A stretch of 64,000 nt of DNA from Candidatus Saccharimonadota bacterium (GTDB lineage Bacteria; Patescibacteriota; Saccharimonadia; Saccharimonadales; UBA10212). The notes under the pieces were generated by a model that was given only the letters and a program-made list of their open reading frames with translations, ran no database searches and was not told the origin of the DNA. The DNA lies in assembly GCA_016187125.1 (NCBI GenBank), contig JACPKF010000007.1, positions 835-64,834 of the forward strand, read 5' to 3'. A program made the position numbers and the translations under genes. Positions 4,334 through 52,021 of the stretch are shown here, one piece after another (the first letter of the stretch is position 1; the number at the start of each line of letters is the position of its first letter).

Positions 4334-5005
4334 ATGAGTTTAAGCGGGGTGGAAAAGAGATACTTGCAGATGCTGGGACTGCTCAGCGGGCTATGCCTGA
4401 GCTTATTTAGCCTTAGGCTGCTGGCAACGGGTGTGTCGCGCTACTGGTTTGTACCGGAAAACTTGCTGCTGGCCTGGTTGGCACTAATTTTTGGCTGGCT
4501 TTTGATGAGGCAGCTGGACCGTAGCGGTTGGCGCAACTGGCGGGCTCTTGTTTTAACTGGGTTTTGGCTACTATTCTTACCGAATGCTTGGTACGTCATG
4601 ACCGATTTTATCCATGTCTTTGACAGCGGGGAGATAAGCTATATTTATGATATTGCCATGATCAGCACGCTGACACTAACCGGTTTTTTGCTGGGCTTTA
4701 CCAGTTTATTTATGGTACATCGACAAATGCTCAGGCGTATGGGCTATTTATCGGGCTTTGTGGTGATAGAAATAGTCATATTGCTGGCCAGCTTTGCTAT
4801 TTATCTAGGCCGCGATCTCCGCTGGAACACCTGGGATATCCTAACTAACCCCAGCGGCTTGATCTTAAGCATTACCGACCGGCTGATAAATCCCTTTGGT
4901 TTTCCGCGAGCGGTGAACGTTACGGCCATTTTCTTTGTAGTTATCAGTATTATGTACCTAGCTATCTGGCTGTTCCTTAAGCCAGTCGCAACCAGAAAGA
5001 CCTAA
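4334..5005 (+). CDS. polytopic membrane protein, DUF1361-like
   Basis: Multiple hydrophobic helices. The LFLPNAWYVMTDFIHV motif resembles the DUF1361 PNAPY..TD..H motif. Confidence 0.6.
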   Translation: MSLSGVEKRYLQMLGLLSGLCLSLFSLRLLATGVSRYWFVPENLLLAWLALIFGWLLMRQLDRSGWRNWRALVLTGFWLLFLPNAWYVMTDFIHVFDSGEISYIYDIAMISTLTLTGFLLGFTSLFMVHRQMLRRMGYLSGFVVIEIVILLASFAIYLGRDLRWNTWDILTNPSGLILSITDRLINPFGFPRAVNVTAIFFVVISIMYLAIWLFLKPVATRKT

Positions 5006-8282: not shown

Positions 8283-8291
8283 CTTGTTGTA

Positions 8292-8333
8292 AGTACCCCA
8301 CTTTTGGTCCGATCGGACCAAAAGTGGGGTACT
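8292..8333. terminator. bidirectional hairpin terminator, perfect 42-nt palindrome centred on CCGATCGG
   Basis: agtaccccacttttggtccga|tcggaccaaaagtggggtact lies between convergent genes. A sister palindrome is at 25249-25288. Confidence 0.7.
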
Positions 8334-8346
8334 TTAGTATCTTAAT

Positions 8347-8961
8347 CTATTTGAATTGGGGCGCTGATAGAATTTGCTGAGTGCTGCTATAAGCCTCTTT
8401 TAAGGTCACGCCTAAATCCTTAGGGGCGCTAGCGTAAGCATTGTTAAGAGCCGAACTATAGTCCGCTAAATTTGTTTTTAGGTAGTTCAAGTAGGTTTTG
8501 TCATAATTGTTATTTTGCGACGCGGCTTGCAACTCGTCATCAGTAGATTTATTATGCCTAGCGTTTAATTTTTTAGGATCGGTCTTTATTTTATGAGCTT
8601 TTAAATATTTGGCTATTTCCTGCTTCTCGCTACTTAAAGAGTCGCCGGTAGTTAGAGCTAGAGCTTTAGTGTCGTCGGCCGTAGCTTGCTGACGGGCAAG
8701 CGTACTGACACGGGAAATCTCCTGAGCTCGAGCCATAATATCAATTAACTGAGCACTATTACTTACCCGTTTGCCAAAAAGGAGCGAAAATAGCAGAATA
8801 CCTATAATTAAAACTAAAGACACTCCAGCTATCAGCACGGCCGGTTTTGGTAAGCCAGACCAAGGGAAATGCCGGGGAGGTTTAGGCGAATCTTTTAAAA
8901 TAAAATCAAATTGCCCAGGAGCGGGGGAAGCTGGCTGCGTGTTTTGAGATGACATAAGCAC
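8347..8961 (-). CDS. membrane-anchored hypothetical protein (204 aa)
   Basis: Single N-terminal TM helix (AVLIAGVSLVLIIGILLFSLLF) followed by a polar domain. Confidence 0.5.
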   Translation of the reverse strand: MLMSSQNTQPASPAPGQFDFILKDSPKPPRHFPWSGLPKPAVLIAGVSLVLIIGILLFSLLFGKRVSNSAQLIDIMARAQEISRVSTLARQQATADDTKALALTTGDSLSSEKQEIAKYLKAHKIKTDPKKLNARHNKSTDDELQAASQNNNYDKTYLNYLKTNLADYSSALNNAYASAPKDLGVTLKEAYSSTQQILSAPQFK

Positions 8962-12791: not shown

Positions 12792-12829
12792 ATAGGAATA
12801 AATTCAGCGATCGCTGAATTTATTCCTAT
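12792..12829. terminator. perfect 38-nt palindrome centred on GCGATCGC, likely terminator
   Basis: ataggaataaattcagcga|tcgctgaatttattcctat lies 16 nt after the kinase stop. Confidence 0.6.
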
Positions 12830-13979: not shown

Positions 13980-14077
13980 AGCATCTCCTTATGATGTACT
14001 TGGTATCTACAAACCCAGACAAACCTACCCCAGCGAGTAAGAGCAGTTTTTTACGACCTACATAAACCATTCTAATA

Positions 14078-14107
14078 TTCTTAAGAATAATAGAATAGGA
14101 ATAATTA
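14078..14107. repeat. copy of the ttctaatattcttaagaatattagaa palindrome family (imperfect)
   Basis: cattctaatattcttaagaataatagaata lies about 45 nt upstream of ORF 14153. Other copies are at 48498-48523, 48780-48807 and 51421-51452. Confidence 0.7.
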
Positions 14108-14152: not shown

Positions 14153-14692
14153 ATGTCAGAGGATTACACAGGCCCACTTCAGGTAGAAGAAATTCCTTTT
14201 AACCCTTTAAACAAAACGGGTTGGGAAAAAGAAGACGGACAAATAAATGAAGTTGTGATACGAGGAGAGCGAAAGCCAGTTCATCCAACAAATAACCTTC
14301 GAATGATTTTCGGTTTCCATAAAAGGCTAATTAGTGGCGATCGTACCGATCCTTTTATGCAGGTATACAAAGGTGTATTTCAAACAAATAGGCTAGGTGA
14401 AATTTTGGAACACTTTGGTAAAAAGTTTCCTCTTCTATATGCAAGAATGAGTGAGATTAGCGAGCAACATTATCAGAACGCGCAAGATCGGAATAATGCA
14501 TTAGTGAAGCTTGGGCCCAACTCCCCAGAATATGAGACTTTTGTCAAAAAACAAGGGCGCACTGTCGAAGAAGCGGTTGAGCAAGATTACATTTTTTCCA
14601 TGGGCTATGATGGTTTAGCCGAGTCAGCGGTTGAACTTGATCCCGAATATCCAGTAGAAAATCTTCGGGTGCTCACCGGCTATAACGGCTAA
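14153..14692 (+). CDS. hypothetical protein (179 aa)
   Basis: Intact ORF. A TATAAT (14141-14146) lies 6 nt before the ATG. No motif recognised. Confidence 0.45.
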   Translation: MSEDYTGPLQVEEIPFNPLNKTGWEKEDGQINEVVIRGERKPVHPTNNLRMIFGFHKRLISGDRTDPFMQVYKGVFQTNRLGEILEHFGKKFPLLYARMSEISEQHYQNAQDRNNALVKLGPNSPEYETFVKKQGRTVEEAVEQDYIFSMGYDGLAESAVELDPEYPVENLRVLTGYNG

Positions 14693-25248: not shown

Positions 25249-25288
25249 TTACCCCAAAAAGTGTCCGATCGGACACTTTTTGGGGTAA
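25249..25288. terminator. bidirectional hairpin terminator, perfect 40-nt palindrome centred on CCGATCGG
   Basis: ttaccccaaaaagtgtccga|tcggacactttttggggtaa lies between convergent genes. Confidence 0.7.
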
Positions 25289-31822: not shown

Positions 31823-32593
31823 ATGGATGGATTTTTGTTAGTTGATAAGCCAATTGGTATGACGTCGCATGATATTGTAGCGAGAGTGCGCGGCGTGCTA
31901 CGCACAGTCGCCAGTCAATACTCAACAGTCGCCAGTCGAAAAAAACTAGGGACTAAGGACTATCGACTAGTGACTCCTTCGGCGAAGCCGAAGGTTGGTC
32001 ACACTGGAACTCTGGATCCGCTGGCCACGGGATTGATGATTTTAGTGATCGGCAGTTATTGTAAACGGGCTAGCGAATTTAGCAAATTGGACAAAACTTA
32101 TGAAGTAGAACTGACGTTAGGAGCTACCAGTACAACCGGTGATACCGAAGGTCACATAACTTCAACTTCAGATAAGCACAACCTAAACAGAATTCAGCGA
32201 TCGCTGAATTCTGTTCCGAAAATAACGGAGGTGCTTAAGACATTTATTGGCGAAATTAAACAGGTTCCTCCAGCCTATAGTGCCATCAAAGTGGGCGGAC
32301 AAAGGGCCTATAAATTGGCGCGGCAAGGGAAGCCAGTCAAAATTGAGCCGCGAAAGGTTATGATCTACGAAATACGATCTACGATCTACGAGTACCCGAA
32401 GCTGTGTTTCACAGCCAGGGTGTCTAGTGGTACATACATCCGGTCACTGGCCGAAGATATCGGTAAAAAACTCGGCACCGGCGCTTATGTTTCAGCTCTG
32501 CGCCGCACCAAAGTTGGAGGCCTTAATATAGAAAATGCTCTCGAAATTGACAAGTTCTCGCTTCCAAACATCGAAAATCACTTGCAAAAGTAG
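31823..32593 (+). CDS. truB: tRNA pseudouridine(55) synthase with repeat-derived inserts
   Basis: Contains GFLLVDKPIGMTSHDIV, KVGHTGTLDPLATG and SSGTYIRSLAEDIG. Confidence 0.9.
   Translation: MDGFLLVDKPIGMTSHDIVARVRGVLRTVASQYSTVASRKKLGTKDYRLVTPSAKPKVGHTGTLDPLATGLMILVIGSYCKRASEFSKLDKTYEVELTLGATSTTGDTEGHITSTSDKHNLNRIQRSLNSVPKITEVLKTFIGEIKQVPPAYSAIKVGGQRAYKLARQGKPVKIEPRKVMIYEIRSTIYEYPKLCFTARVSSGTYIRSLAEDIGKKLGTGAYVSALRRTKVGGLNIENALEIDKFSLPNIENHLQK
32187..32216. repeat. perfect 30-nt palindrome (aacagaattcagcga|tcgctgaattctgtt) inside the truB CDS
   Basis: It has the same ttcagcgatcgctgaa core as 12792-12829 and is translated as NRIQRSLNSV. Confidence 0.75.
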
Positions 32594-41595: not shown

Positions 41596-41645
41596 TCTCA
41601 ATCCGAGGTCCGAGACTTACTTCATAATAGATAACAGATCAAGAT

Positions 41646-41683
41646 ATGAGAATAGATTCAGCGTTCGCTGAATCTATTCTCAT
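41646..41683. terminator. palindromic hairpin atgagaatagattcagcg-tt-cgctgaatctattctcat
   Basis: An 18-bp stem 50 nt after the last rnj-end copy. It has the same termini as the element at 1561-1661. Confidence 0.6.
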
Positions 41684-41780
41684 ACTCTTTGTCCACCTGC
41701 AGAACCTAGTTATCGACGCGTCGAGTAAGTTAACTGCAAGGGAAGAGAATATTTAATTAGTTAAGTACTTAATGATTTAC

Positions 41781-47446: not shown

Positions 47447-48013
47447 ATGGCTTTAAGTATTACGGAACTCAAGAAGGGGACTATATTTCAGATGGATGGA
47501 ATCCCATACCGAGTTATCGAGTACAGTCAAAAAGTGATGGGGCGGGGCGGTTCGACCGTTAACGTTAAAATTAAAAGTTTGGTTGATGGCAAAGTTCTAG
47601 CCAAAACTTTCCATGGCGGGGAAAAACTAGACTCTGCCGACATAGCTAACCGGCCGGTCCAGTATCTATACGAAAAAGGTGGGCAGTACCATTTCATGGA
47701 CGTTGAAAATTACGACCAGTTCAGTCTGTCGACCGAAGACACGGAGGGCAAAGGGGGATATTTGAAAGAGGGAGATACAGTGACTGCCCAATTTTTTGGC
47801 GGGCGGGTGATAAGCATCGAACTGCCCAAAAACGTGCCGCTAAAAGTTACTTATACTGAAGACGCAGTGAGAGGGGACACCAGCTCGTCTATCACCAAAG
47901 ACGCAACATTGGAAACTGGCGCGACTGTTAAGGTACCAGCTTTTATCAAACAAGGCGATATAATCTCGGTGGATACAACCAATGGCACCTACAAGCAGCG
48001 CGTCAAAAACTAA
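47447..48013 (+). CDS. efp: elongation factor P
   Basis: 188 aa. Contains ELKKGTIFQMDGIPYRVIEY and KVPAFIKQGDII. Confidence 0.95.
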   Translation: MALSITELKKGTIFQMDGIPYRVIEYSQKVMGRGGSTVNVKIKSLVDGKVLAKTFHGGEKLDSADIANRPVQYLYEKGGQYHFMDVENYDQFSLSTEDTEGKGGYLKEGDTVTAQFFGGRVISIELPKNVPLKVTYTEDAVRGDTSSSITKDATLETGATVKVPAFIKQGDIISVDTTNGTYKQRVKN

Positions 48014-48491
48014 CCAGCATCGCTACCTTATTGCCTACTTGTTAGATAGTTTAGAGATTGGAGACAAGTTCCAGCCCTCAGCGCTACATATTACAATTCT
48101 ACCGTGGTTCGCATTGGAAACGGATGAAGGGCCATTTTTGACATGGTTTTATGACCATTTTGACAGAGTGCCGGCTTTTAATGCCGAGGTTGGTACCAGA
48201 AAATTATTTGGCCCTGACAAAGACGTGCCGGTAAGTCTGATGGAGCCAGAGCGTAAGTTTATGCAGCTGCACCTGTTGGCACTGAGCTGGTTTGGCAAAG
48301 TTGGCGCCCGTTGGGCAGAGAAGGATCCCTACGTTGGTAATGATTATATACCCCACGTTGCTCAACGACGGGGTTTTGTTCTCAACGAGGGCGATATTTT
48401 ACCCATATCTTCACTAACCCTGTTTAAAGCCGCCCGTCGCGAAGACCAAATCCGCCGAGTCGCTGCCAAAGCCGTACTTAAACAAGGATAA
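47982..48491 (+). CDS. hypothetical protein, possibly 2H-phosphoesterase-like
   Basis: One clear HxT motif (LHITILPWF) and a weaker second one (PHVAQ). The start is uncertain and overlaps the efp end. Confidence 0.35.
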   Translation: MAPTSSASKTNQHRYLIAYLLDSLEIGDKFQPSALHITILPWFALETDEGPFLTWFYDHFDRVPAFNAEVGTRKLFGPDKDVPVSLMEPERKFMQLHLLALSWFGKVGARWAEKDPYVGNDYIPHVAQRRGFVLNEGDILPISSLTLFKAARREDQIRRVAAKAVLKQG

Positions 48492-48497
48492 CCAATT

Positions 48498-48523
48498 TTC
48501 TAATATTCTTAAGAATATTAGAA
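48498..48523. repeat. perfect 26-nt palindrome ttctaatattctt|aagaatattagaa just upstream of the HTH gene
   Basis: It ends 7 nt before the ATG at 48531 and belongs to the 4-copy palindrome family. Confidence 0.8.
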
Positions 48524-48530
48524 TGTAACT

Positions 48531-48809
48531 ATGAAAACTATCTATTCTTCTCAAGATCTAGCAGATATTTTAAAAGGGGGAGCCAATCATCACAGAATTA
48601 ATATCCTTTTTTTGCTTGATAAGCGAGGCAAGCTAACACTCGACGAAGTTGCTGAGGCATTAAGGGCAAATTATAAAACTATTGCTGTCCACCTTAGCCG
48701 CCTACATAAAAGTGGGCTGGTTACCAAGCGCTATAAAGCTTCAGCTGTCGAGCATGATTTAACACCACGTGCTCGCCATATTCTAAATTTCTTAAGAATA
48801 TTAGAATGA
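48531..48809 (+). CDS. small winged-helix (ArsR-like) DNA-binding protein
   Basis: A 92-aa protein with HHRINILFLLDKRGKLTLDEVAEALRANYKTIAVHLSRLHKSGLV, an HTH pattern. The gene is bracketed by two copies of the palindrome. Confidence 0.6.
   Translation: MKTIYSSQDLADILKGGANHHRINILFLLDKRGKLTLDEVAEALRANYKTIAVHLSRLHKSGLVTKRYKASAVEHDLTPRARHILNFLRILE
48780..48807. repeat. imperfect copy of the palindrome spanning the HTH gene stop and the tlyA start
   Basis: attctaaatttcttaagaatattagaat encodes ILNFLRILE* and contains the tlyA ATG (48806). Confidence 0.75.
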
Positions 48810-49531
48810 CGAGTCTTAAAAGGGTAAGATTGGATCAAAGACTAGTGCAGCTTAGATATACTCCGACGCGTAGCCAGGCAGAAAATTATATTCGACTGGG
48901 TTTTGTAGAAGTCAATGAAAAAGCAGTAACTAAAGCCGGCTTTTTTGTTGCGGATAAAGACAAAATTAGATTAACTAACCCTGAGCATTATGTTAGCCGG
49001 GCCGGTTTAAAACTATCCGATGCTAACAAGTATCTAAAAGTAGACTTTAGCAATAAAGTAGTGCTTGATGTAGGTAGCAGCACGGGTGGTTTTACGGACT
49101 ATGCTCTGCACAAGGGGGCCAAAAAAGTTATTGCCGTGGATGTCGGTACCGACCAACTGCATCTAAAACTTCGTGCAGATGAAAGAATTGAGCTTTACGA
49201 AAAAACCGATATTAGAGACTTTAAGCTAAAATCTGCCCCCGACATTATTATGGTGGATGTCTCGTTTATTTCACTAAATTTGATATTACCTCATTTAGCA
49301 CGATTAAGCAGTTCCAAGACTATAATCATAACCTTACTTAAACCCCAATTTGAGGCTGGAAATGAGCAAATTAACAGGGGTATCATCAAAAATGATAGTA
49401 TACGCCGGACTATCCTAAAGGATTTCGAAAATTGGACAAAAAATTTGTTCAATATTGTCGGCAAAGTTGATAGTAATATTACCGGCTCCAAAGGCAATCG
49501 GGAGCGTTTTTACTTACTTAAAAAACTATAA
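48806..49531 (+). CDS. tlyA: TlyA-family rRNA 2'-O-methyltransferase
   Basis: S4-like N-terminus RLDQRLVQLRYTPTRSQAENYI and FtsJ motif VLDVGSSTGGFTDYALHKGAKKVIAVDVG. Confidence 0.85.
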   Translation: MTSLKRVRLDQRLVQLRYTPTRSQAENYIRLGFVEVNEKAVTKAGFFVADKDKIRLTNPEHYVSRAGLKLSDANKYLKVDFSNKVVLDVGSSTGGFTDYALHKGAKKVIAVDVGTDQLHLKLRADERIELYEKTDIRDFKLKSAPDIIMVDVSFISLNLILPHLARLSSSKTIIITLLKPQFEAGNEQINRGIIKNDSIRRTILKDFENWTKNLFNIVGKVDSNITGSKGNRERFYLLKKL

Positions 49532-50884: not shown

Positions 50885-52021
50885 CTAGACATTGAAACGG
50901 AATTCGACTACGTCGTCGGGTTGCATAATGTAGTCTTTACCCTCGGTGCGCACCTTGCCAGCGGCCCGGGCGCCCGCTACTGAACCGGCAGTAATTAAAT
51001 CCTGGTAATTTATGACTTGAGCGGCGATGAAACCTCTCTGAAAGTCGGAATGAATAACCCCTGCGGCTTGTGGGGCAGTGGACCCTTTGCTAATTGTCCA
51101 GGCCCGAACTTCTTTTTCGCCGGCGGTCAAGAAACTCTGCAAGCCCAAAACACCATATGCGGCATGAATTAACTGAATTAGCCCACTCTCATTTTGTCCA
51201 TAACTGGCAAGGAGTTCCTGACGGTCAGTTTCGTCAAGTCCCCGTAGCTCACTTTCTAATTTTGCGCAAATAAATACGGCTTTTGCGGGCGCAATTAGAT
51301 CTGTTAATTCCTTTTGCAGGGATTGTCCCTGCAAACTGGCTTCGTCGATGTTAAACACGTAAATTACTGGCTTAGCAGTTAGCAGCTGGAGTTCGTCCAA
51401 GAAAACTGACTGGTCCTTATCCATTCTAATATTCTTAAGAATATTAGAATGGGACAGGGAAGAGTTGGTTTGTAGGTGGGTATTGATAGAATTTAGGGCG
51501 TCGAGTTGAGGTTTTAGTTTTGGGTTGGCTTTAGTTTCTTTTTCCAAACGGGGCAGGCGTTTATCAACCGTTTGCAGGTCGGCAAGTACCAGTTCGGTAT
51601 TTATTATTTCTATATCCTCCGACGCTCCGACCACTAAGTCGGAAGTCGGAGCCCCGATCGAAGCGTCGGGGTTTTTCACGCGGGCTACATTTGGATCATC
51701 AAAGGCTCTTACTACGTGGCAAATGGCATTTGCTTGTCTAATGTGGGATAAAAATTGGTTGCCCAAACCCTCGCCTTGGCTGGCGCCAGCGACTAAACCG
51801 GCAATATCTACAAATGTCACCGTGGCTGGCACGATTTTTTCGGTTTTATAAATCTCGGCCAGTTTTTGCAAGCGCGAGTCGGGAATCGGCACGATGCCGG
51901 TATTTGGCTCAATGGTCGCAAAAGGGTAATTAGCAATCAGGGCATTAGCGTCTGTCAACGCATTAAACAGCGTAGACTTACCGACATTGGGGAGGCCAAT
52001 AATTCCAATACTAAGACTCAA
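50885..52021 (-). CDS. ychF: redox-regulated ATPase YchF
   Basis: GIIGLPNVGKSTLFNALT, the TGS domain and the C-terminal DDVVEFRFNV. It carries a palindrome insert at 51421-51452. Confidence 0.95.
   Translation of the reverse strand: MSLSIGIIGLPNVGKSTLFNALTDANALIANYPFATIEPNTGIVPIPDSRLQKLAEIYKTEKIVPATVTFVDIAGLVAGASQGEGLGNQFLSHIRQANAICHVVRAFDDPNVARVKNPDASIGAPTSDLVVGASEDIEIINTELVLADLQTVDKRLPRLEKETKANPKLKPQLDALNSINTHLQTNSSLSHSNILKNIRMDKDQSVFLDELQLLTAKPVIYVFNIDEASLQGQSLQKELTDLIAPAKAVFICAKLESELRGLDETDRQELLASYGQNESGLIQLIHAAYGVLGLQSFLTAGEKEVRAWTISKGSTAPQAAGVIHSDFQRGFIAAQVINYQDLITAGSVAGARAAGKVRTEGKDYIMQPDDVVEFRFNV
51421..51452. repeat. perfect 32-nt palindrome ccattctaatattctt|aagaatattagaatgg inside the ychF CDS
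   Basis: It is translated on the minus strand as SHSNILKNIRMD in the helical insertion domain and belongs to the same family as the 48.5-kb copies. Confidence 0.85.

Follow-up and report, generated by a model that had tools for sequence, protein, structure and literature searches.

A dispersed palindrome that brackets a small ArsR-fold gene in Saccharibacteria as the candidate DNA site of the encoded protein

A palindrome at both ends of a winged-helix gene

In a genome of Candidatus Saccharimonadota bacterium, a small gene encoding a winged-helix protein of 92 amino acids (aa) is bracketed by two copies of a 26-nucleotide (nt) palindrome, TTCTAATATTCTTAAGAATATTAGAA, which is probably the cognate DNA site of the protein encoded between them, as judged from sequence comparison. 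The window, that is, the whole stretch of DNA analysed here, comprises 64,000 nt of contig JACPKF010000007.1 (assembly GCA_016187125.1) and contains four near-identical copies of this palindrome, where 0.00 would be expected by chance according to 100 dinucleotide-preserving shuffles. When the window was scored with a 28-mer of the form ATTCT...AGAAT, four sites had 26-28 matches and the range of 19-25 was empty, shuffled sequences reaching only 17-20; site quality in the window is all-or-none, with intermediate or degenerate copies being absent.

The 5' copy (O1, 48498-48523) is a perfect 26-mer whose 28-mer (48497-48524) scores 27/28. It starts 6 nt past the stop codon of an upstream 169-aa gene and is separated by 7 bases (48524-48530) from the ATG at 48531 of the bracketed gene (48531-48809, + strand). 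The 3' copy (O2, 48781-48806) has 2 mismatches as a 26-mer and scores 26/28 as a 28-mer (48780-48807) that spans the nine final codons of the gene (ILNFLRILE), the T of its TGA and the first two bases of the ATG (48806) of the following gene, tlyA. A third copy is intergenic (14070-14095, 1 mismatch; 28-mer 14069-14096, 27/28), starting about 90 nt after a pheA-like gene (end 13979) and ending 57 nt ahead of the open reading frame (ORF) that begins at 14153, so that it is centred some 70 nt upstream of that start. The fourth copy (51424-51449) is perfect, extends to a perfect 32-nt palindrome (51421-51452) and lies inside ychF. Three of the four are found within 3 kb around the regulator gene, a crowding that is repeated with three sites in one of the relatives described below (L094). 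All the palindrome and gene features reported in the initial annotation of this DNA were recovered where it had placed them.

Conservation of the arrangement in Saccharibacteria

The association of gene and palindrome was found in five of the six other Saccharibacteria lineages sampled, L091 and L092 counting as one. Orthologues of the regulator with 85, 78 and 65% identity (L001, L005 and L009) keep the order efp / 165-169-aa gene / regulator / tlyA. Together with L094, these lineages retain O1 at the same position, both flanking palindromes and the ATGA overlap between the regulator stop and the tlyA start. L093 and L094, which are more distant, were reached through their YchF. Both copies are present in L094 (48% identity in the ArsR protein); in L093, at the same identity, the 5' copy is degenerate and the 3' copy decayed. 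In L091/L092 the regulator gene is absent, the 169-aa gene overlaps tlyA directly and the empty junction holds no palindrome. The variable presence of the gene that the initial annotation had suggested looking for is thus found, and it is best read as loss, since L091 and L001 are at a similar distance from the window and gene-bearing lineages lie on all sides of L091. The order efp / 169-aa gene / ArsR gene / tlyA is ancestral in Saccharibacteria.

The 3' copy leaves a clear mark at the nucleotide level. Where two compared sequences have the same amino acid, they also use the same codon in 54 of 63 cases (86%) within the last eight codons, as against 193 of 491 (39%) over the remainder (Fisher p = 1e-12 for synonymous conservation under the 3' copy). 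The codons under this copy are therefore conserved beyond the protein level. At the other end of the gene, the relative with 65% identity shows a mirrored change in the 5' copy, A5T being accompanied by T22A.

The encoded protein

The 92-aa protein matches Pfam HTH_5 (ArsR family) at residues 22-66 with 33.7 bits (cut-off 22), and the profile of its orthologues aligns over the full length with HlyU (E about 5e-7), which is the best solved relative yet shares only 22-29% identity. In the AlphaFold model, with a mean predicted local distance difference test score (pLDDT) of 83.4, helices at residues 7-14, 17-32, 37-43 and 48-61 are followed by strands at 64-69 and 72-77 and by a last helix at 79-91, an order (H-H-H-H-E-E-H) that corresponds to the alpha1-alpha5 winged helix. 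Assignment to ArsR/SmtB is based on the HTH_5 match above the gathering score and on this modelled alpha1-alpha5 plus beta-hairpin fold. The best Foldseek neighbours in the PDB are CadC, HlyU, SqrR, PagR, SmtB and AspA, an archaeal plasmid centromere-binding protein; the top matches CadC, HlyU and SmtB have TM (template modelling) scores of about 0.7, and AspA shares 27-28% identity. By analogy, a fold of the HlyU/CadC/SmtB type together with the full-length profile match would favour a dimeric repressor.

Narrower assignments do not hold. The protein sequence contains no cysteine and helix alpha5 (TPRARHILNFLRILE) carries one His only, so that neither the Cys motif nor the alpha5 metal ligands of ArsR/SmtB metalloregulators are found; likewise, the NCBIfam model HTH_metalloreg scores 40.4 bits, under its cut-off of 55. 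Membership in the HlyU subfamily fails on the lack of a close relationship and of a redox-sensitive Cys pair.

The predicted recognition helix contains ANYKTIAVH, and the peptide encoded by the 3' palindrome, ILNFLRILE, belongs to the C-terminal helix alpha5, which by homology would be the dimerisation helix. In an exhaustive profile search, E <= 1e-3 was reached by 352 clusters (50% identity) and E <= 1e-10 by 131; their lengths are almost always 88-100 aa, and the family appears confined to Patescibacteria. The exact ending FLRxLE occurs in 33 of the 159 family sequences examined. Co-variation between recognition helix and operator was considered and abandoned: the helix motif (N/D)(Y/F)KT(I/A)(A/S)xH and the palindrome core are both near-invariant, and the clade with DYKTIAEH, which uses AATTTC...GAAATT arms, provides too few independent events.

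Distribution of the palindrome across Patescibacteria

When one genome per species was scanned with TCTDWWWTTCTTAAGAAWWWHAGA, 74 loci were obtained, about 50 of them in Patescibacteria and the remainder mostly in AT-rich Firmicutes and Bacteroidota. The Patescibacteria loci belong to Saccharibacteria, Paceibacterota, Parcubacteria and Yanofsky-, Sungii-, Zambryskii-, Doudna-, Levyi-, Wolfe- and Lloydbacteria. As detected with a hidden Markov model of the regulator, a homologue adjoins the motif in 18 of the 74 loci. Most of these 18 loci are also bracketed, with one copy 18-91 nt before the start and another at the 3' end, and this 3' copy always meets the regulator stop codon, in varying registers. 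In the clade ending in ...LKFLRxLE the final codons are part of it; other genes terminate at a TGA or TAA in its left arm, and still others at the TAA in its centre. Given that proteins with another C-terminus still have the palindrome at the stop, read in another frame, it is the DNA element and not the peptide that is kept. The gene downstream of the regulator differs by phylum (tlyA, NUDIX, Macro, nucleoside deoxyribosyltransferase and others), and therefore the two sites belong to the regulator gene and not to its neighbours. A looping of DNA between the two bracketing sites was considered and found unsupported, their spacing of 271-381 bp showing no helical phasing. In a clade of the Paceibacter/HR35 type, arrays of 3-5 palindromes lie upstream of the regulator (L033 4592-4805; L015 6167-6500; L020 1120-1599), the L033 array consisting of 91-nt tandem repeats (2.3 copies, 80% matches).

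With respect to neighbouring genes, 44 Patescibacteria sites lie between co-directional, 16 between convergent and 9 between divergent genes, and 19 fall inside called ORFs, about 7 of these ORFs being real genes; the difference between the convergent and divergent classes is not significant (p = 0.23). Genes that start just 3' of sites include those for TsaC/Sua5, YfiH, PrmC, TruB, RuvX, a nucleotidyltransferase, an MBL hydrolase and others. A functional regulon was sought among recurrent neighbours and discarded, clustering having returned only the regulator family itself plus one pair of prmC genes. The translation-related neighbours (TsaC, PrmC, TruB, RuvX, TlyA, YchF) may only reflect the gene content of the candidate phyla radiation (CPR). 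In this pair, the site ahead of prmC shows 100% conservation, compared with 76% identity in the flanks of the two genomes. Within single assemblies, sites are spread over separate contigs, at a copy number of about 1 per 15-30 kb.

Beyond these genomes, a metagenome scan with a 32-mer of the window variant, which is too specific to reveal gain or loss at the strain level, found one 1.2-kb contig (L087) with a 36-nt palindrome in a divergent intergenic region. Three matches on viral contigs were set aside as chance, being AT-rich, with flanks that do not match and no ArsR homologue. The same palindrome, often perfectly symmetric, is carried by members of the Clostridium butyricum/beijerinckii/neonatale group (L013, L014, L034, L039, L059, L070, L078), where it sits in runs of 8-nt-periodic ATTCTnAn units with no regulator homologue nearby. 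A palindrome of the Patescibacteria type was also observed in a contig binned as Gammaproteobacteria (L010), which has a regulator homologue as well, and in two assigned to Phycisphaerae (L055 and L068); all three may be mis-binned CPR contigs.

Symmetry and uniformity within genomes

Across 70 distinct sites, little or no variation is seen in the 10-nt centre TTCTTAAGAA and in the outer TTCT/AGAA blocks, and 6 of the 14 arm positions are found altered on both sides. Doubly changed cells number 111, compared with 53.6 +/- 5.5 in shuffles, none of 500 shuffles reaching 111; at position 8/25 all four Watson-Crick pairs are seen. These figures must be read with the caveat that copies from one genome are not independent. 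The sites sampled from one assembly share a single variant that includes the flanks extending the palindrome to 30-36 nt. These flanks, identical within a genome, vary between genomes, and palindrome length is not fixed (26, 32 and 36 nt). An example is provided by L094, whose ychF copy has the same genome-specific TAACAT/ATGTTA variant as both copies flanking its regulator.

Copies inside genes

Several copies are read in frame within protein-coding genes, with the peptide (Y/H)SNILKNIR(I/M), in truB (L046), yfhO (L064), rnhB and the ychF of the window, and these intragenic copies split the Pfam domain or are missing from orthologues. In the RNase HII genes of L074 (1692-2576) and L060 (3129-3800), in-frame copies occupy different positions, L074 having two in tandem (HSNILQNVRM and YSNILKNIRI) in an insertion of about 38 aa.

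The window ychF (50885-52021, - strand; Pfam MMR_HSR1 and YchF-GTPase_C), which encodes a ribosome-associated ATPase, reads the palindrome in frame as HSNILKNIRM. YchF orthologues of 357 aa lack this peptide. The ychF copy is nonetheless not a recent private insertion, since the peptide, or a worn version of it, recurs in a clade of YchF proteins. The copy of L094 is perfect and of its genome's own variant. In L093 (10550-10573) the palindrome is perfect with the core CTCGAG, and in L091 (10574-10597) it is 10/12-symmetric with the core CTGCAG. These departures from the CTTAAG core are mirrored substitutions, some of them synonymous, and palindromy itself is maintained or regenerated in both ychF genes. 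A second lineage-specific insertion was observed at YchF residues ~113-125 (ARVKNPDASIGAP plus neighbouring residues), which is common to the closest YchF relatives (P0161-P0164, P0172) and absent from the 357-aa orthologues.

Promoter context and transcript structure

Under a strict rule, a TAnnnT hexamer precedes the start codon by 5-8 nt in 16 of the 63 window genes, typically as TATAAT-N6/7-ATG, and a Shine-Dalgarno-like motif is found in 19 of the 63. Leaderless mRNAs look common in this genome because genes with TAnnnT near the start are frequent, which suggests that such transcripts may be widespread in this Saccharibacterium. Examples of TATAAT located 6-7 nt ahead of the start, with no Shine-Dalgarno motif, are the genes at 4334, 14153, 25652, 26684, 42919 and 56349.

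The regulator gene has no Shine-Dalgarno motif either. The right arm of O1 contains a -10-like hexamer, TAGAAT (48519-48524, + strand), 6 bases before ATG 48531, and this TAGAAT-N6-ATG geometry is the same as that of the other leaderless-looking genes. Given this distance of 6 nt, the regulator mRNA would probably be leaderless. Similarly, the centre of O2 holds AAGAAT (48794-48799, + strand) 6 bases before the tlyA ATG at 48806, which may be the -10 element of a promoter for leaderless tlyA transcripts. The regulators of other phyla come with a TATAAT-N6/7-ATG of their own, and there the palindrome is centred 46-52 nt upstream, over the -35 region.

A terminator scan called none of the copies, whose stem is A/U-rich and not followed by a U-tract; the flanks read (c/a)(t/c)AT...AT(a/g)(g/t), with no T-run. 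As RNA, the copies would have folding energies of -10 to -20 kcal/mol (z-scores -3.4 to -6.4). Rfam 15 returned nothing for the window at gathering scores, and nothing for 48300-49000 at E <= 1.

Other genes and palindrome families in the window

The left border of the module is the 169-aa gene neighbouring efp (47982-48491, + strand), whose orthologues in L009 and L094 carry 2_5_RNA_ligase2. To the right, tlyA (48806-49531, + strand) encodes an rRNA 2'-O-methyltransferase (TIGR00478, 218.9 bits, cut-off 185.8; Pfam S4 and FtsJ). The ORF at 14153-14692 (+ strand; 179 aa, NCBI locus tag HYW35_03510) has its own TATAAT-N6-ATG, matches nothing in Pfam or NCBIfam, and among 5.8 billion protein clusters finds only itself; the idea of following site conservation through its homologues was dropped, as none exist.

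Two further families of long perfect palindromes were observed in the window. One, with the centre GCGATCGC and the core GAATTCAGCGATCGCTGAATTC, occurs at 12792-12829, 32186-32215 and 41645-41684; two of its copies are intergenic and one, of 30 nt, lies inside truB (31823-32593). The other consists of perfect palindromes of 40-44 nt (..CCCCA..TCCGATCGGA..TGGGG..) at 8291-8334, between the convergent yjbR and 8347-8961, with an RNA fold of -36.9 kcal/mol, and at 25249-25288, after a HAD hydrolase gene.

A proposed role for the protein and its site

We infer from these observations that the protein, which has no metal-sensing residues, binds the palindrome, probably as a dimer or as two dimers, since each arm has two ATTCT units in a 13-2-13 layout. 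On the 5' copy it would occlude RNA polymerase and repress its own gene. On the 3' copy it may block either read-through into tlyA or initiation at tlyA, and the copies in ychF and upstream of ORF 14153 would represent further high-affinity sites of the same protein. The initial annotation had proposed that the palindrome is the operator of this regulator, which would control itself and a small regulon including the gene at 14153 and a site inside ychF. Comparative evidence strongly supports the operator part of this proposal, namely the gene-site association in five of the six Saccharibacteria lineages and at 18 loci of other Patescibacteria phyla, the symmetric covariation, the synonymous conservation under the 3' copy and TAGAAT-N6-ATG. 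The small regulon proved too simple a view, the gene at 14153 being an orphan, sites being convergent or intragenic, and degenerate sites being missing.

Several points weigh against autorepression through a cognate operator. The pairing of protein and palindrome rests on association, and a strict sigma-70 scan calls no -35/-10 pair at either bracketing copy. A plausible promoter is found under a single one of the four window sites. The 16 sites between convergent genes and the approximately 7 inside real genes are unusual for the regulon of a repressor. The window, as noted above, has no degenerate sites. Regarding the covariation, template-switch correction of quasi-palindromes can yield mirrored changes without selection, and the symmetry that the ychF copies of L093 and L091 keep outside the invariant core is better accounted for by a constraint of structure or mutation than by this protein recognising them.

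Alternative explanations

The alternative that survives best, although we consider it unlikely, is that the palindrome is a dispersed self-propagating element comparable to repetitive extragenic palindromic (REP) sequences or to Rickettsia palindromic elements, the winged-helix gene encoding an associated or domesticated binding protein and regulation being secondary. Rickettsia palindromic elements are 100-150 bp long and have in-frame copies in housekeeping proteins, and the in-frame copies in truB, yfhO, ychF and rnhB (the last in two genomes, at different positions and in tandem in L074) speak for an element of this sort. So do the sites between convergent genes, the all-or-none quality, the identity of copies within a genome over 30-36 nt with flanks included, and the presence in the window of the two other long perfect families, one with a copy in truB. 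As in REP/RAYT (REPIN) systems, a gene is flanked by two palindromes and extragenic copies are dispersed, some of them between convergent genes. However, a RAYT is a Y1/HUH transposase, whereas the bracketed protein has only a DNA-binding fold, with matches to winged-helix families alone, and no transposase or other catalytic protein is associated. Moreover, the palindrome is low in copy number compared with REP and Rickettsia elements and measures 26-36 bp. Its length is variable, no target-site duplication could be defined, the viral matches look like chance, and the sites flanking the ArsR gene and those at ychF and prmC are old, being conserved at orthologous positions.

It is less probable still that the copies are chromosome-organising or centromere-like sites, such as those of parS/ParB, matS/MatP or pNOB8 AspA, which the winged-helix protein would bind for a purpose other than transcription. 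The near-perfect sites are indifferent to gene orientation and to coding or non-coding location, and parS and the AspA system likewise tolerate near-perfect palindromes in coding sequence and have sites at the gene of the binding protein. The clusters of three sites in 3 kb around the gene (window and L094), the arrays of 3-5 sites in the Paceibacter-type clade and the place of AspA among the best structural matches point in the same direction. Against this, neither a partition ATPase nor a ParB-like partner adjoins the gene at any locus examined, the protein has no CTPase domain, and the sites lie on separate contigs of the same assemblies and not in one cluster; evidence of clustering at an origin was not found, and the window shows no skew switch. 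Both of these alternatives are compatible with the palindrome being the cognate site of the protein, because in each of them the protein binds it.

Improbable, too, and slightly more so, is an RNA hairpin with no protein-binding DNA site, acting as an mRNA 3'-end or stability element or masking the tlyA start with translational coupling. The folding energies, the many copies just 3' of stop codons, the constant position of the 3' copy on the regulator stop and the palindromy preserved by mirrored substitutions even when the core changes would suit such a hairpin. Structure alone, however, does not need a 10-nt centre, including the would-be loop, that is invariant across phyla; there is neither a U-tract after the stem nor an Rfam match, the leaderless geometry would leave the 5' copy untranscribed, and the strict link with the gene of a DNA-binding protein is left unexplained. 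Finally, the second proposal of the initial annotation, that the regulator gene arrived as a cassette, inserting at a palindrome already present between the efp neighbour and tlyA and duplicating this target, can be considered very improbable: L091/L092 lack the gene here and the module adjoins different genes in different phyla, but the gene order is ancestral, both copies accompany the gene in the window, L001, L005, L009 and L094 (48-85% ArsR identity; the 3' copy is decayed in L093), the palindrome that duplication predicts at the L091 junction is missing, and the 3' copy is functional coding sequence, specifying the C-terminal helix that is conserved in the protein family.

Relation to known systems and significance

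HlyU, BigR, SqrR, PagR and NolR are proteins of about 90-100 aa that dimerise via alpha1/alpha5 and bind AT-rich inverted repeats of about 26-30 bp, and the sites of non-metal-sensing ArsR/SmtB repressors often overlap their own promoter. The 92-aa protein resembles this group in being a small alpha1-alpha5 winged-helix protein and in its best profile and fold matches. It differs in that the thiol switch of HlyU, BigR and SqrR is absent because the protein has no cysteine, in the lack of alpha3/alpha5 metal ligands and the sub-threshold HTH_metalloreg score, and in a site that lies on both sides of the gene and across its stop codon, with further copies scattered over the genome and into other genes. 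ArsR/SmtB proteins bind an imperfect inverted repeat of the 12-2-12 type overlapping their own promoter; the counterpart here would be a 13-2-13 palindrome located 7 nt before the ATG and containing TAGAAT. A further likeness is found in CIRCE (controlling inverted repeat of chaperone expression) and HrcA, where a long perfect inverted repeat is conserved across distant lineages together with a winged-helix repressor. CIRCE may also act at the RNA level. Unlike CIRCE, which precedes a defined chaperone regulon, the palindrome has heterogeneous targets among which only the regulator gene is constant.

An autoregulated ArsR-fold protein with a palindromic operator is in itself known already. What appears new is the conservation of the sequence across the radiation, the obligatory pair of bracketing sites, one of them placed over the stop codon, and the scattered copies, some of them in frame in essential genes; a full-text literature search, of partial coverage, returned no description of the motif or of the protein-site pair in Patescibacteria. 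A tentative proposal, which we hold to be possible and no better than that, is that these features belong to an undescribed radiation-wide system in which an ArsR-fold protein of about 90 aa has its dimerisation helix and stop codon within its own 26-36-bp site, with tens of copies per genome, some of them in frame in essential genes for translation and DNA maintenance (ychF, truB, rnhB) and held symmetric by mirrored changes. The system would then be either the main global regulator or insulator of these minimal genomes or a propagating element similar to REP/RAYT that a non-catalytic protein runs.

Patescibacteria have tiny genomes and very few transcription factors, and their gene regulation is hardly known. 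If true, a pair of factor and site that spans many of their phyla, the sites being easy to recognise, would offer an entry point for regulon mapping in the few cultivated Saccharibacteria. It would also bring two questions within reach, why a regulator keeps a site on its own stop codon and how the site entered essential genes in frame. Should the sites propagate, they would form a transposase-free system of the REP kind; otherwise they would be a rare case of protein-coding sequence co-opted as an operator, or constrained by it, over long evolutionary times.

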